NCBI RefSeq assembly: GCF_030013595.1
Contig: NZ_CP122774.1
Length of the DNA stretch: 5,732 nucleotides
Direction: 5' to 3' (one strand)
Source: Escherichia coli
GTDB lineage: Bacteria > Pseudomonadota > Gammaproteobacteria > Enterobacterales > Enterobacteriaceae
The notes beneath the pieces were generated by a model, which was given only the letters and a program-made list of their open reading frames with translations, ran no database searches and had not been told where the DNA came from. A program made the translations under genes and the position numbers. Shown here one piece after another: positions 1,120-5,732 of the stretch (position 1 is the stretch's first letter; each line of letters starts with the position of its first letter).

Positions 1120-1227
1120 TGTAAACGAAAAAACCACCATGGCAGGTGGTTTTTCGAAGGTTATTTAATCCTGGCAGATTGAATAACCGTGGTAACAGCC
1201 TTGTGCGAGACGTGTCACCAAATCTGT
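1120..1227 (-). ncRNA. RNA I antisense copy-number control RNA (about 108 nt, approximate ends)
   Basis: The minus-strand terminator is the complement of gtaaacgaaaaaaccaccatggcaggtggttttt (1121-1154). The 5' end aligns with the conserved ccaaat.ctgtcc block (1218-1230). The minus-strand promoter (-10 complement agtgta at 1234-1239, -35 complement cttcaa at 1258-1263) matches the pMB1 RNA I promoter layout. Loop sequences differ from ColE1/pMB1. Confidence 0.7.
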
Positions 1228-2018: not shown

Positions 2019-2210
2019 TCAGAGGTTTTCACCGTCATCCCCGAAGCGTGCGAGGCAGCTGCGGTAAAGCTCATCGGCGTGGTCGTGAAGCGATTCACAG
2101 ATGTCTGCCTGTTCATCCGCGTCCAGTTCGTTGAGCTTTTCCAGCAGCGTTAATGTCTGGCTTCTGATAAAGCGGGCCATGTTAAGGGCGGTTTTTTCCT
2201 GTTTAGTCAC
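2019..2210 (-). CDS. rop: Rop/Rom, RNA I-RNA II interaction modulator (63 aa)
   Basis: Translation MTKQEKTALNMARFIRSQTLTLLEKLNELDADEQADICESLHDHADELYRSCLARFGDDGENL matches the ColE1/pBR322 Rop sequence as I remember it. Here the start codon is GTG (complement of 2208-2210), with GGAGG 6 nt upstream on the minus strand. Confidence 0.95.
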   Translation of the reverse strand: MTKQEKTALNMARFIRSQTLTLLEKLNELDADEQADICESLHDHADELYRSCLARFGDDGENL

Positions 2211-2598: not shown

Positions 2599-4330
2599 GT
2601 TTCATGCCAGGGGAAAAGGCGGTGGCAGTGGTCCGGTTGATTACCTGCTGGGAAGGGAGCGTAACCGGGAAGGGGCAACGGTGCTTCAGGGTAATCCGGA
2701 AGAAGTCCGGGAACTCATCGATGCCACGCCATTTGCGAAGAAATACACGTCAGGTGTTCTGTCGTTCGCGGAGAAGGAGCTGCCGCCTGGAGGGCGTGAA
2801 AAAGTGATGGCGAGCTTTGAGCGTGTACTGATGCCCGGTCTCGAGAAAAATCAGTACAGCATCCTGTGGGTGGAGCACCAGGACAAGGGACGGCTTGAGC
2901 TGAATTTTGTCATTCCGAACATGGAGCTACAGACCGGAAAACGCCTCCAGCCGTACTACGACCGGGCAGACAGGCCGAGAATTGATGCCTGGCAGACGCT
3001 GGTTAATCACCATTACGGGCTGCATGACCCCAACGCCCCGGAGAACCGCCGGACGCTGACCCTTCCTGATAACCTGCCGGAAACGAAACAGGCGCTTGCA
3101 GAGAGCGTCACACGCGGGATAGACGCTCTTTATCATGTCGGGGAGATAAAAGGCCGTCAGGATGTGATTCAGGCGCTCACAGAGGCAGGGCTTGAAGTGG
3201 TCAGGGTGACGCGAAGCAGTATCAGCATTGCAGACCCGAACGGTGGGAAGAATATCAGGCTGAAAGGAGCATTTTATGAGCAATCTTTTACAGACGGGCG
3301 CGGAGTTCGAGAAAAAGCTGAAAGAGAGAGCCGAATCTACAGAGACAATGCTGAACGACGAGTTCAGCAAGCTCGAAAAATCTGTAAGCAAGGCTGTGAC
3401 ATCAAACGAGACGAAAATCAAAGACGCTATAGCCCTGTTCACAGCTTCGACAGAGGAATCACTGAAAAAACACCGGGAAGGGGTGAAAGAGGCGATGATG
3501 CAGCACAGGAAGGACGTGTTAAAGCTGGCAGGGAATACGGGCATGATGTTACTGGGGATGGTCCTTTTCCTGTTTACCGTGAGTGGCGGGACGCTCTGGT
3601 ATCTTGGCGGGCGGATACAGGCGAACCTGGAAGAAATCAGGATACAGGAAGAAACATTGCAGAAACTGAACGCGAAGACATGGGGCGTGGAGTTTGTGCA
3701 GGACGGGAGAAGGAAATTTCTGGTCATCCCGCAGGGGAAATCGGCAACGGTGATTCCCTATCAGGAGAAGGACTGGGTACAACTGACGGAGTGACACAGA
3801 GTGACGGAGCTGGAAAGACATTTGCTGAACGCCTTAGAGCAACTGCAACAGGACTATATGCAGCGGCTGAGCGAATGGGAGAGCGCCTTCGTGGAATTGC
3901 AGAAAATGTTTTCGCTTACGCAACGGGACAACGCGATGCTGAACGAGCAGGTCATGCAGTTGAGTCAGCAGGTGCAGCACTTGAGCGAGCGGACAGAACG
4001 CTTGAGCCAGTTATACAGCGAGAACAGGAGATAAGGGACGAACGGCTGATACAGGAGCGCGAACATGAGTTATCCCTGGAGCGTGAGCGCCAGCTGGAAA
4101 TACAGGAACGGACACTGGATGGCATGGTAATCAGAGACAGGCTAAAATGTTGTCAGCGCGTTTCCGGTGCATTTTTTGGGATAATGGTTGGTTCGGGGGC
4201 ACCGGGAACGCGCTTCAGTCAGACCTTGCTGAAAACACAGGAACGCGTTAAAACGCATACGGGCGCGATTCTGGTGTGTCTTTTGTTGCTGTGTTTTGCC
4301 TCTATTGCCAGATCGCGCTCATTCCCCTGA
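2588..4330 (+). CDS. mbeA: Mobilisation relaxase MbeA (ColE1-type). 580 aa from ATG 2588 (the ORF track starts 4 codons earlier at 2576); 3' boundary should be verified.
   Basis: N-terminus MIVKFHARGKGGGSGPVDYLLGRE is the canonical relaxase start. The ORF overlaps the mbeC stop by 11 nt and contains mbeB and mbeD in the +1 frame, as in ColE1. The hydrophobic C-terminal tail (ILVCLLLLCFASIA) is atypical. Confidence 0.85.
   Translation: MIVKFHARGKGGGSGPVDYLLGRERNREGATVLQGNPEEVRELIDATPFAKKYTSGVLSFAEKELPPGGREKVMASFERVLMPGLEKNQYSILWVEHQDKGRLELNFVIPNMELQTGKRLQPYYDRADRPRIDAWQTLVNHHYGLHDPNAPENRRTLTLPDNLPETKQALAESVTRGIDALYHVGEIKGRQDVIQALTEAGLEVVRVTRSSISIADPNGGKNIRLKGAFYEQSFTDGRGVREKAERESRIYRDNAERRVQQARKICKQGCDIKRDENQRRYSPVHSFDRGITEKTPGRGERGDDAAQEGRVKAGREYGHDVTGDGPFPVYREWRDALVSWRADTGEPGRNQDTGRNIAETEREDMGRGVCAGREKEISGHPAGEIGNGDSLSGEGLGTTDGVTQSDGAGKTFAERLRATATGLYAAAERMGERLRGIAENVFAYATGQRDAERAGHAVESAGAALERADRTLEPVIQREQEIRDERLIQEREHELSLERERQLEIQERTLDGMVIRDRLKCCQRVSGAFFGIMVGSGAPGTRFSQTLLKTQERVKTHTGAILVCLLLLCFASIARSRSFP
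3276..3794 (+). CDS. mbeB: Mobilisation protein MbeB (172 aa), nested in the +1 frame of mbeA
   Basis: 172-codon ORF with AGGAG (3265-3269) 6 nt upstream of ATG 3276. Position and length agree with ColE1 mbeB; it has a central hydrophobic segment (MMLLGMVLFLFTVSGGTLWYL). Confidence 0.8.
   Translation: MSNLLQTGAEFEKKLKERAESTETMLNDEFSKLEKSVSKAVTSNETKIKDAIALFTASTEESLKKHREGVKEAMMQHRKDVLKLAGNTGMMLLGMVLFLFTVSGGTLWYLGGRIQANLEEIRIQEETLQKLNAKTWGVEFVQDGRRKFLVIPQGKSATVIPYQEKDWVQLTE
3801..4034 (+). CDS. mbeD: Mobilisation protein MbeD (77 aa), same frame as mbeB, GTG start 6 nt after the mbeB stop
   Basis: GTG at 3801 with GGAG 10 nt upstream. Coiled-coil-like sequence (LEQLQQDYMQRLSEWESAFVELQKMF...). 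Position corresponds to ColE1 mbeD. Confidence 0.7.
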   Translation: MTELERHLLNALEQLQQDYMQRLSEWESAFVELQKMFSLTQRDNAMLNEQVMQLSQQVQHLSERTERLSQLYSENRR

Positions 4331-4435: not shown

Positions 4436-4577
4436 TGCATAGCTATGCATGTGGTTAAAATTTACCGGGTGCGATCGCGGCAGTTTTTCGGGTGGTTTGT
4501 TGCCATTTTTACCTGTCTGCTGCCGTGATCGCACCGAACGCGTTTCTGCGGTGCGGGCAACGGATGTTATGGTAAAT
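4436..4577. other. cer/psi-like Xer site-specific recombination (multimer resolution) site: accessory region with a palindromic box plus XerC/XerD core
   Basis: Core GGTGCGGGCAA-CGGATG-TTATGGTAAAT (4550-4577). The right arm is identical to the cer/dif XerD arm TTATGGTAAAT as I recall it, and the left arm is GGTGCG..CAA like the XerC arms. A perfect 14-bp palindrome TGCATAGCTATGCA (4436-4449) lies about 100 bp upstream, where cer carries its ArgR box. Confidence 0.55.
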
Positions 4578-4693
4578 ATTGGTGCTCTGGGATGAAGCGA
4601 AAATAGGCTTTTTTTCGCTATTTTAGCCTGTTCAGGAACGGCAAGAGTAAATATCTGGGAGCATGAAGCTCGTTAACCTGAATGGAGATCCTG

Positions 4694-4858
4694 ATGATGG
4701 ACAAAGATACCACCACCCTAAAACGCACTTTGGCTCATAATCGAGCCTTTAGCGATAATATTAACCGCAGTGGCATAGCCTGGTGCTATAACACTGAGAT
4801 TGTACTCGCTGCTTGTGAGGCGATTGAAGCCGAACTACAACGGCGAGGATGTTTGTAA
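4694..4858 (+). CDS. Small hypothetical protein (54-55 aa: MMDKDTTTLKRTLAHNRAFSDNINRSGIAWCYNTEIVLAACEAIEAELQRRGCL)
   Basis: Not in the ORF track (below its length cutoff). GGAG at 4684-4687 sits 6 nt upstream of tandem ATG ATG (4694-4699). TAA at 4856-4858 is followed within 10 nt by a strong terminator. Confidence 0.4.
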   Translation: MMDKDTTTLKRTLAHNRAFSDNINRSGIAWCYNTEIVLAACEAIEAELQRRGCL

Positions 4859-4865
4859 CAATAAG

Positions 4866-4889
4866 AAAACCCGCATCAGCGGGTTTTTT
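4866..4889 (+). terminator. Rho-independent terminator
   Basis: aaaacccgc-atca-gcgggtttttt: perfect 9-bp stem, 4-nt loop and a T-run. Confidence 0.75.
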
Positions 4890-4960
4890 AGTCTCTGAGA
4901 CGCGCTACCGCTAAATTATTTTTCTCTCTATCCGCCCTGGCTTGCCCCCTACAACCCCAT

Positions 4961-5007
4961 GGAGCACAAGGAGCACAGGGAGAACCATCGAGCACAACGA
5001 GCACCGC
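4961..5007. repeat. Five tandem degenerate 9-bp repeats (G)GAGCACA-type
   Basis: ggagcacaa | ggagcacag | ggagaaccatc | gagcacaac | gagcaccgc, read directly from the sequence, immediately upstream of the AT-rich tract. Confidence 0.6.
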
Positions 5008-5219: not shown

Positions 5220-5732
5220 ATGTCCGCAAGAGCAAGAAAAGCAGGTAAGAGAAATCAGTCAGAACGACGTCAGGATTTGATTGAAAAATTGTGGGAAGAC
5301 GACGAAATCGATACTTGGCATCGACTTGAAAATGATGGGTACTCAACAGTTCCACGTTATTTGCCTTTGATAGGCGATCTCATGGATGGTCTGTCAAAAG
5401 GATCACCATTATCAACAACCTACTTGGCTTTATGGTTCAGGGTTTCTGATGAGGGGTTGATTGAAATAAGAGATAAAGCAGCACTGGCTTTTGAATCAGG
5501 GTTCGCTAGTGAAAGAGGCGTAACTACATGGGCAGGGAGAATGAAAAAGCTAAAAGAACTGGGGTTCATATCCTGTCGTGAAGGCAGCACCGGTGAATTT
5601 CATTACGTGTTAATTGTTCACCCATTAGTTGCAGTCAAAAAGCTGCTTGATGAAGGGATTATCCCTAAAGGAAAGACTTATAACATTTTGTCGGAGCGTG
5701 TAATTGAGGTGGGAGCCTCTTGGGAGGGTTAA
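5220..5732 (+). CDS. Hypothetical winged-helix-like DNA-binding protein (170 aa from ATG 5220; the ORF track starts at GTG 5193). Candidate proximal gene of the two-gene accessory cassette.
   Basis: GGGAG (5208-5212) lies 7 nt upstream of ATG 5220. Basic N-terminus (ARARKAGKRNQSERRQ). The central segment TTYLALWFRVSDEGLIEIRDKAALAFESGFASERGVTTWAGRMKKLKELGFISCREGSTGEFHYVLI has a helix, helix-turn-helix and beta-wing pattern typical of wHTH regulators, Rep proteins or antitoxins. Stop TAA is the last three bases of the window. Confidence 0.6.
   Translation: MSARARKAGKRNQSERRQDLIEKLWEDDEIDTWHRLENDGYSTVPRYLPLIGDLMDGLSKGSPLSTTYLALWFRVSDEGLIEIRDKAALAFESGFASERGVTTWAGRMKKLKELGFISCREGSTGEFHYVLIVHPLVAVKKLLDEGIIPKGKTYNILSERVIEVGASWEG

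Follow-up and report, generated by a model that had tools for sequence, protein, structure and literature searches.

A small gene with its own terminator shared by cer-bearing plasmids and temperate phages of the Enterobacterales

Introduction

Morons are compact genes that carry their own 5′ signal and terminator and lie in the gaps of phage late operons. The classic examples, i.e. bor and lom of phage lambda and gp15 of HK97, occupy varying late-operon slots, encode membrane proteins or lipoproteins and resemble one another between copies only as far as the edges of the unit. The anti-CRISPR-type genes of Mu-like Pseudomonas phages are of a similar kind, as they encode small soluble proteins, have signals of their own, use the slot between MuF and scaffold or protease genes and are found on plasmids too. 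Small ColE1-type plasmids, in turn, are the home of Rop (or Rom; PF01815), an RNA-binding helical hairpin of 63 amino acids, and of Rcd, a non-coding regulatory RNA of about 70 nt which is transcribed from the promoter Pcer inside the cer site (PMC2831885, PMC5935869). Here we compare with these systems a small gene at positions 4694–4858 (plus strand) of a 5,732-nt stretch of Escherichia coli DNA (contig NZ_CP122774.1), which in its full length is referred to below as the window and which is probably the whole circle of a small mobilisable plasmid of the ColE1 type (near-identical public plasmids have a size of 5,775 bp). This gene is found next to the cer-type site of plasmids as well as in the head gene modules of temperate phages, a distribution on which the original prediction of the gene, made from the letters of the window, had been silent.

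A small reading frame under purifying selection

The gene encodes a protein of 54 amino acids (MMDKDTTTLKRTLAHNRAFSDNINRSGIAWCYNTEIVLAACEAIEAELQRRGCL), which is identical to RefSeq WP_000968835.1 and belongs to PHROG 35409. It begins with tandem ATG codons (4694–4699) and ends with TAA (4856–4858), i.e. it comprises 55 codons including the stop, and is preceded by the Shine–Dalgarno sequence GGAG (4684–4687, plus strand), which is located 6 nt (atcctg) upstream of the ATG at 4694 and 9 nt upstream of that at 4697. Both the GGAG at 6 nt and the double start codon, on which the original prediction had built, can be read directly from the window. Relatives mostly show GGAG or GGAGG 6–8 nt 5′ of the start, the exceptions being copies L017 (GGGG) and L014 (GGAA). 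A program-made list of open reading frames (ORFs) starts this frame at an upstream in-frame ATG at 4682 (58 amino acids); since this codon overlaps the Shine–Dalgarno sequence and is out of frame in one of the plasmid clades described below (clade C), translation starts at 4694 or 4697, with the N-termini of the family (MxRTTxxL) slightly favouring 4697 and the Shine–Dalgarno spacing favouring 4694.

An important point is that the window contains 57 ORFs of at least 30 amino acids, so that the size of this one alone is within chance and the case for a gene rests on comparison. When the small protein was compared with 72,556 plasmids by tblastn, 59 plasmid records matched at 45–100% amino acid identity, with all but one of them (58) covering at least 80% of the protein and with hosts belonging to Escherichia, Klebsiella, Enterobacter, Salmonella, Citrobacter, Raoultella, Cronobacter, Rahnella and Shigella. 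By identity to the window these plasmids fall into three clades, A (94–100%), B (63–72%) and C (45–49%). In all plasmid copies fetched the frame is open over 53–54 amino acids and ends just 5′ of the terminator, and in a six-frame check of 15 diverse plasmid and phage copies the coding frame alone was free of stops in every copy. Between clades, dN/dS is 0.16–0.47 with synonymous change near saturation, differences accumulate at third codon positions (e.g. 17/11/26 for the three positions), the sole length difference is the insertion or deletion of one codon in frame, and among relatives the similarity of the proteins outlasts that of the DNA. Just as the original prediction had expected of a genuine gene, the frame is thus conserved in ColE1-family plasmids with mostly synonymous or third-position change, and these comparisons show it to be under purifying selection. 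Disruption of the frame in homologous plasmids, which would have spoken for the opposite, is confined to two copies (P0003 and L012), as against dozens of intact ones.

In P0003, which is a single Logan contig, a one-base frameshift after codon 32 leads into the alternative frame of the window (4800–4898). L012 (779–898, plasmid pKPC-98f) has lost the last six codons, and a gene for a Tn3-family transposase lies about 2.3 kb away on that plasmid. A different kind of variation is seen within clade A, where the sole differences are F19L, S20I and N22S (codons 19–22, window 4748–4759), without any synonymous change, all on the C-terminal half of the first of two predicted helices; residues 19–22 may represent a variable, contested interaction surface, or these tiny numbers may reflect chance.

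The description of the gene as unannotated applies to clades B and C in public records, but not to RefSeq, where it is listed as a hypothetical protein on identical plasmids. In complete E. coli genomes it is present in 22 of 5,426 and always plasmid-borne. With the ribosome-binding and termination signals in place and the frame conserved across plasmids, we regard it as very probable that this is a real small gene, as originally proposed, and one that is autonomous and conserved.

A unit exchanged between plasmids and phages

The similarity between plasmid and phage copies begins 5′ at a –10-like box, TAAATA (4648–4653, plus strand), and ends 3′ at an intrinsic terminator (4866–4889). Between these limits, plasmid and phage copies have in common the TAAATA box, an inverted repeat (GAGC..GCTC), the GGAG and a terminator of the form GCCCGC/GCGGGC, while their flanks are unrelated. 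The phage copies always reside in the packaging and head block, where they use four different slots: between MuF and scaffold genes (Providencia phage PSTCR3 as well as prophages of E. coli, Pectobacterium and others), between the terminase gene TerL and the portal gene, between TerS and TerL, and between lysis and small terminase genes (in widespread Proteus prophages). Most of them belong to a single module type (Phage_portal_3/Mu_F/Pa193_gp24). Being compact, carrying a 5′ signal and an intrinsic terminator of its own, appearing in varying slots of late operons and losing the resemblance between copies at its edges, the unit has the architecture of a moron and, judged by its sequence, is exchanged between plasmids and phages. 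It differs from the classic morons in that its promoter is only putative (a –10-like box without a –35 element), in that small plasmids have it as well, at a constant place next to cer, and in that its product is predicted to be a cytoplasmic hairpin rather than a membrane protein or lipoprotein.

The location of every phage copy within the terminase–portal–MuF–scaffold block, mostly of one module type, and the recurrence of the slot between MuF and scaffold in Escherichia, Pectobacterium and Providencia would also suit an accessory factor for packaging or head assembly, in which case the plasmid copies would be captured phage genes that perhaps interfere with packaging or exploit it. However, four different slots within the module are used, a terminator after the gene is atypical of an integral gene of a structural operon, and purifying selection acts on the plasmid copies, in whose vicinity there are no phage genes. 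We consider a role of this kind very unlikely.

The whole unit also occurs in a Pantoea chromosome (L118/L119, 5001–5162), with genes for an IS110 transposase, an AAA_13/SMC-like ATPase and S8 peptidase/AAA proteins as neighbours and with a sequence similar to a XerD arm (TTATGTTCAT) just 3′ of the terminator. This locus is possibly the remnant of an integrated plasmid in a variable region resembling a defence island.

The terminator consists of the hairpin AAAACCCGC-ATCA-GCGGGTTTT (4866–4887), which is preceded by a run of As and followed by Ts that continue to 4889, giving AAAACCCGC-ATCA-GCGGGTTTTTT as the complete element. Owing to the A-run 5′ and the T-run 3′ of the hairpin it is usable in both directions, i.e. 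on either strand; that a scan tool called it on the minus strand only is because its greedy stem takes up the T-run. Folded alone, it forms an 11-pair stem of –15.6 kcal/mol (z = –8.2), which none of 200 shuffled sequences equalled, and 13 of the 15 diverse copies have a homologous GCCCGC-loop-GCGGGC(T)n hairpin past the stop codon. The original prediction of a terminator with a 9-bp stem 10 nt past the stop codon was right about the terminator, which is a hairpin with a stem of 9–11 bp and a T-run, but not about its exact distance, since the hairpin starts 7 nt and its GC core 11 nt after the stop.

At the other end, the TAAATA box does not vary among 11 diverse copies from plasmids and phages, in which it lies 40–47 nt 5′ of the start codon, and by virtue of this conservation it is presumed to be the promoter element of the unit. 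Other readings of the upstream region, i.e. as a sigma-70 promoter, a sigma-E promoter or one with TTGATA as –35 element, were dismissed, as none is conserved across the copies. Positions 4646–4653 of the window (agTAAATA) are identical in 6 of 8 positions to TATAAATA, the motif of T4 late promoters, and most copies, which read gATAAATA, in 7 of 8; with 6 of 8 in the window and no supporting biology, we keep this likeness as a curiosity only.

Five nt after the box follows the inverted repeat GAGC-ATGAA-GCTC (4659–4671, plus strand), which is the only GAGC-N4–6-GCTC in the window and which stands at a fixed distance from TAAATA in all copies but the two most divergent. Its loop varies between 3 and 6 nt across the copies and its folding energy is –5 to –6 kcal/mol; a fifth pair is A–T in four copies, G–C in L029 and a mismatch in several others, the window among them, and in the Pantoea copy pairing is maintained by a shifted stem with a G·U wobble. 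The variable spacer of 3–6 nt and the one copy that requires G·U suit an RNA hairpin more than the operator of a dimeric DNA-binding protein, a reading that they disfavour; the repeat probably folds into a hairpin right at the mRNA 5′ end or close to it. Two further readings did not hold: a boxA/nut-like element in GCTC(T)TTAAC on its 3′ side, where the bases past GCTC are not conserved across copies, and a connection with the GAGCAC array at 4961–5004, which goes with a winged-helix-like gene further downstream and not with the small ORF.

When 2.9 million viral contigs were scanned for TAAATA-N3-GTGAGCAAT, 79 matches were found, most of them expected by chance; ten have the full hairpin followed by an ORF of the family and one more (L059) has a hairpin-like repeat without such an ORF. 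That the ten matches with a full hairpin precede a family ORF indicates that the 5′ element goes with this gene rather than being a regulatory cassette of general use. For the exact 25-nt 5′ motif there was a single chance match among the viral contigs, in an unrelated one.

One could argue that the unit acts as RNA or DNA alone, i.e. as a non-coding RNA or as a terminator that insulates cer from transcription of the cargo, with the ORF being incidental. The terminator is indeed strong and bidirectional, the presumed whole transcript folds better than shuffled sequences (z = –3.8), and the AT-rich leader of the cargo contains two promoter-like sites on the minus strand which face cer. Against this stand the dN/dS well below 1, the third-position excess, the in-frame indel, the one frame open in all 15 copies and the persistence of protein similarity past the loss of DNA similarity; moreover, Rfam contains no family that matches this stretch beyond terminator-like noise. 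This alternative therefore appears extremely improbable.

The unit and the cer site

In the window, the cer-type XerC/XerD core (GGTGCGGGCAACGGATGTTATGGTAAA) is found at 4550–4576 (plus strand), 118 nt before the start of the ORF, and a two-gene cargo cassette occupies 5220–5732 plus 1–495, spanning the ends of the window, so that the position between cer site and accessory cassette given in the original prediction is correct. The ORF begins 118–120 nt past the XerD arm, on the same strand, in clades A and C, in L014/L015 and in L020, i.e. in four plasmid lineages whose proteins are only about 45–55% identical. In clade B, which has an insertion of about 370 bp, 490 nt lie in between, and L021 and L030 have distances of 325 and 84 nt, respectively; the plasmid copies outside this range of 84–490 nt from the cer core are L004 and, limited by contig ends, L017 and L019. 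Within the clade B insertion (L005, about 2245–2400), between cer and the ORF, an apparent small cysteine-rich ORF can be read from the sequence on the opposite strand. ColE1 itself does not have the gene, exc2 occupying that place, and neither do most ColE1-type plasmids. The cargo that follows the unit varies: it consists of a 170-aa winged-helix-like gene and a YjaZ-family gene in the window and L014, of the same 170-aa gene (53% identical) and an unrelated 187-aa gene in clade C, and of HigA/RelE in clade B.

The small ORF lies on the same strand as RNAII and as the expected Rcd, and between the cer core and the TAAATA box there is an A-rich/T-rich hairpin followed by Ts (AGCGAAAA..TTTTCGCT, 4596–4619, plus strand; –9.2 kcal/mol, z = –2.45), which is retained in plasmid copies and which is a possible terminator of an Rcd-like transcript. 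Thus, the unit and Rcd share strand and neighbourhood (PMC2831885, PMC5935869); Rcd, however, is non-coding and lies in or just past the core, and ColE1, its paradigm, is without the ORF. That the unit itself is an Rcd-type RNA was rejected, as it begins about 70 nt past the cer core, beyond the separate hairpin, and shows protein-type constraint. The two studies just cited, which concern ColE1 plasmids, treat cer and Rcd without mention of this ORF.

Could the gene then be part of multimer control by cer and Rcd, i.e. be expressed by read-through from Pcer in cells that carry multimers, with the protein reinforcing the arrest of growth and division or aiding resolution? The constant distance of 118–120 nt in the same orientation in four divergent plasmid lineages, the weakness of the intervening hairpin and the direction of Rcd transcription, which is that of the ORF (PMC2831885), would be in line with this idea. 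On the other hand, ColE1 and most of its relatives do without the gene, prophages and the Pantoea chromosome carry the unit without an upstream cer core, the insertion separates the two in clade B, and the linkage is also explicable by cer being the boundary between plasmid backbone and cargo. Altogether, such a role seems quite unlikely to us.

A family of predicted helical hairpins

The PHROG 35409 profile is matched over the full length by the proteins of the window (E = 2.6e-13), clade B (1.4e-17) and clade C (7.6e-11), with residues 2–54 of the window protein aligning to profile positions 1–53 of 54. Profile searches yielded 42 clusters of 52–67 amino acids, the 67-aa entry being the frameshifted P0003 and the others having 52–64; all are hypothetical or unnamed, and the named taxa, i.e. 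Escherichia, Shigella, Enterobacter, Cronobacter, Proteus, Providencia, Morganella, Pectobacterium, Pantoea, Serratia and Prodigiosinella, all belong to the Enterobacterales. In an alignment of 39 members (52–64 amino acids), N16, I23, E47 and L48 are invariant and L9, L13, L19, A40, I44 and R51 nearly so, and HNR, an SG turn, YN and a C-terminal ELRRRG recur as motifs; the window protein has all of the invariant residues. Hydrophobic residues are spaced in a heptad-like manner, the core including the invariant Asn. AlphaFold2 models the monomer as a hairpin of two helices (residues 4–26 and 34–50; pLDDT 92.6), which predicts the product to be a soluble helical hairpin. Its grand average of hydropathy (GRAVY) is –0.29 (about –0.3 in the family), and the pI ranges from 5.5 to 10.2 across members. 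The gene is thus already known as a RefSeq hypothetical protein and an unnamed PHROG, and a literature search for the accession and for PHROG or Pfam identifiers found no publication on the family.

These properties bear on the roles that the original prediction had considered from the position of the gene. The window protein has neither an N-terminal signal peptide nor any hydrophobic or transmembrane segment, and its N-terminus is polar (MMDKDTTTLKR). A lysis factor is contradicted by the missing signal peptide and by the sole LAAC, which is found in the middle of helix 2 (residues 38–41) and whose Cys gives way to Ile, Asn or Leu in roughly every second relative; a lysis lipoprotein as on colicin plasmids would require a signal peptide ending in a lipobox Cys. 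A small membrane toxin is at odds with the GRAVY value and with a predicted soluble amphipathic hairpin, and the lack of a transmembrane segment speaks against a Hok-type toxin as well as an entry-exclusion protein. Reading the protein as an exclusion lipoprotein fails for want of signal peptide, lipobox and hydrophobic segment, and the exclusion gene of this plasmid, MbeD, is located elsewhere (3801–4034), away from the small ORF. Also rejected was a ribbon-helix-helix protein of the Arc/CopG type, for which there is no Pfam match and where residues 4–26 are predicted to form one continuous helix that shows heptad spacing instead of an alternating strand pattern.

A regulator, also envisaged originally, would be a small nucleic-acid-binding protein which either binds RNA hairpins as Rop does, in the form of a four-helix-bundle dimer, including perhaps the hairpin at its own 5′ end in translational autoregulation, or acts as a DNA-binding autoregulator on GAGC..GCTC. 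Such a function is suggested by the helical hairpin, whose invariant Asn occupies a core position of the heptad in the manner of dimeric coiled coils, by the conserved inverted repeat that accompanies the gene in plasmids and phages, by the conserved basic RRR motif at the C-terminus and by the fact that the plasmid already has one hairpin protein of this sort, i.e. Rop (rom, 2019–2210, minus strand). In size, predicted helix–turn–helix hairpin and type of plasmid the two proteins are indeed alike, and a variant of Rop is one of the weak structural matches of Foldseek (E = 7, TM 0.58). By contrast, there is no sequence relationship, with a probability of only 0.6% in hhalign against the Rop of the window itself and no match to PF01815, and the small gene is also present in phages, which have no RNAI/RNAII system; a relationship with Rop was therefore rejected. 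Further points against a regulator are the absence of Pfam matches to ribbon-helix-helix or helix-turn-helix families, a pI that is not consistently basic, a repeat whose spacer of 3–6 nt and one G·U pair do not provide a fixed operator for a dimer, a low-scoring AlphaFold model of a dimer fused by a Gly-Ser linker (pLDDT 52, pTM 0.36, by what is a crude method), and the two most divergent members, which lack the repeat and yet have the protein motifs. Weighing both sides, we think a regulator of this type unlikely.

Another tiny hairpin is Sda, a 46-aa inhibitor of the Bacillus sporulation kinase KinA, which is of similar size and has a similar end of helix 2 (E-x-E-[IL]-[KR]-R-R); hhalign gives a probability of 42% over 18 C-terminal columns, in comparison with a single Sda sequence. 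However, the Pfam model of Sda finds no match, and taxa and genomic context are different. The resemblance is a weak one and may serve as an analogy only, i.e. as a precedent for a tiny hairpin that inhibits a protein.

Other features of the plasmid

The ColE1-type character of the window is apparent from RNAI (1125–1226, minus strand; Rfam match of 77 bits) and from rom, after which come the mobilisation genes mbeC, A, B and D. Between the terminator of the small gene and the AT-rich leader of the cargo cassette, a 9-bp tandem array (GGAGCACAA, 4.8 copies with four exact GAGCAC) extends from 4961 to 5004; clades A and C as well as L014 have kept it, clade B and the phages do not have it, and it is probably a binding array for the 170-aa protein. 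The cassette itself consists of two abutting genes, the first encoding this 170-aa protein (no Pfam, PADLOC or NCBIfam match) and the second a 164-aa protein of the YjaZ family, assigned by PF27200 on the L014 homologue and by NCBIfam YjaZ (E = 5e-6). The 170-aa gene is conserved at 53–84% in other plasmids, and the second gene is swapped for that of the unrelated 187-aa protein in clade C, a pairing that is reminiscent of a regulator or antitoxin with a variable effector.

The minus strand at 496–629 strongly matches sraL (RF01408), an Hfq-binding small RNA (84.7 bits, E = 5.6e-18, the gathering score being 39). This match and the YjaZ-like gene (1–495) are convergent, and its 3′ terminator stem (496–527) starts at the base after the stop codon of the latter; a small RNA of chromosomal type is unexpected on a small ColE1 plasmid. 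Finally, four repeats of the GTGTTTATAGGTT type, phased by about 10 bp (675–767), are located directly upstream of the gene for a 100-aa helix-turn-helix protein (768–1070), which matches excisionase/MerR-like and MADS MAD1 profiles (E about 1e-6).

Discussion

How might such a unit work? The elements described above would together form a self-contained transcription unit of about 245 bp (4648–4889), comprising a –10-like box, a hairpin, a Shine–Dalgarno sequence, the 54-codon ORF and a bidirectional terminator. The gene would be transcribed on its own from the TAAATA box, and with TAAATA as –10 element the hairpin would come to lie at the very 5′ end of the mRNA. Hairpins in this position protect E. 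coli mRNAs from 5′-end-dependent decay, and the GAGC..GCTC hairpin may stabilize the mRNA in this manner. The terminator would insulate the gene as well as neighbouring cer, which it could shield from back-transcription out of the AT-rich cargo leader; how important it is that cer stays free of transcription is discussed in PMC2831885. The protein is too small for an enzyme and carries no membrane or secretion signals, which suggests that it works by stoichiometric binding to a macromolecule of the host or of a rival element, with inhibition of a host or defence protein as the likeliest form, to the benefit of any mobile element that enters the cell or already resides there.

That the protein inhibits or modulates a host or defence protein in a stoichiometric manner is a tentative proposal, open to considerable doubt. 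We favour an inhibitor because the unit appears to be useful in very different mobile elements, because its slots are those in which phages keep small anti-defence genes with promoters of their own, and because the changes in clade A cluster at residues 19–22, which hints at a contested surface. The anti-CRISPR-type genes mentioned at the outset are comparable in the small soluble product, the own signals, the slot between MuF and scaffold or protease and the occurrence on plasmids; unlike these, however, the family has no match in sequence or structure to known anti-defence proteins that we found, and no Aca-type regulator is associated with it.

Several observations weigh against the combined picture of an autonomous unit that encodes an inhibitor. 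The TAAATA box has no recognizable –35 element, a scan for consensus sigma-70 promoters made no call there, and it is poor as a sigma-70 –10 element (no T at –7); the ORF could instead be transcribed from upstream, i.e. from Pcer or by phage late operons. Helical hairpins can serve many functions. The small protein has no match in Pfam (even at E ≤ 10) or NCBIfam, the window protein and one phage-type member have none among the defence profiles of PADLOC-DB at E ≤ 1, a search of PDB sequences with two profiles returned no relative, and Foldseek against PDB and AFDB50 returned only two uncharacterized family members and generic helical hairpins. Moreover, the constant linkage to cer in plasmids and to one type of head module in phages could reflect a specific function in the handling of DNA multimers or in packaging instead of generic inhibition. 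On balance, we nevertheless lean slightly towards the account as a whole, gene and mode of action taken together, as the best explanation. A bolder version, which we think rather unlikely, is that the 54-aa hairpin founds a new class of portable inhibitors that small ColE1-type plasmids and Enterobacterales temperate phages have in common, delivered as a cassette with a promoter box similar to TATAAATA, a stabilizing 5′ hairpin and a terminator, which would neutralize a host immunity or control protein that threatens foreign DNA of any kind, be it incoming or multicopy.

Proteins of fewer than 60 amino acids are systematically under-annotated, and two of the three plasmid clades described here are without a public gene call; even if the gene should turn out to be neutral cargo, this annotation is corrected. 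The unit also lies in two hot spots that currently attract interest, i.e. the boundary between backbone and cargo at cer in plasmids and the accessory slots in the head operons of phages. That the unit has moved intact between plasmids and phages suggests a trait of general use to mobile DNA, a profile that anti-defence or host-modulating factors show. Its target, if identified, could thus expose a host process or form of immunity that constrains both small plasmids and temperate phages in enteric bacteria, and the protein itself could become a compact tool.

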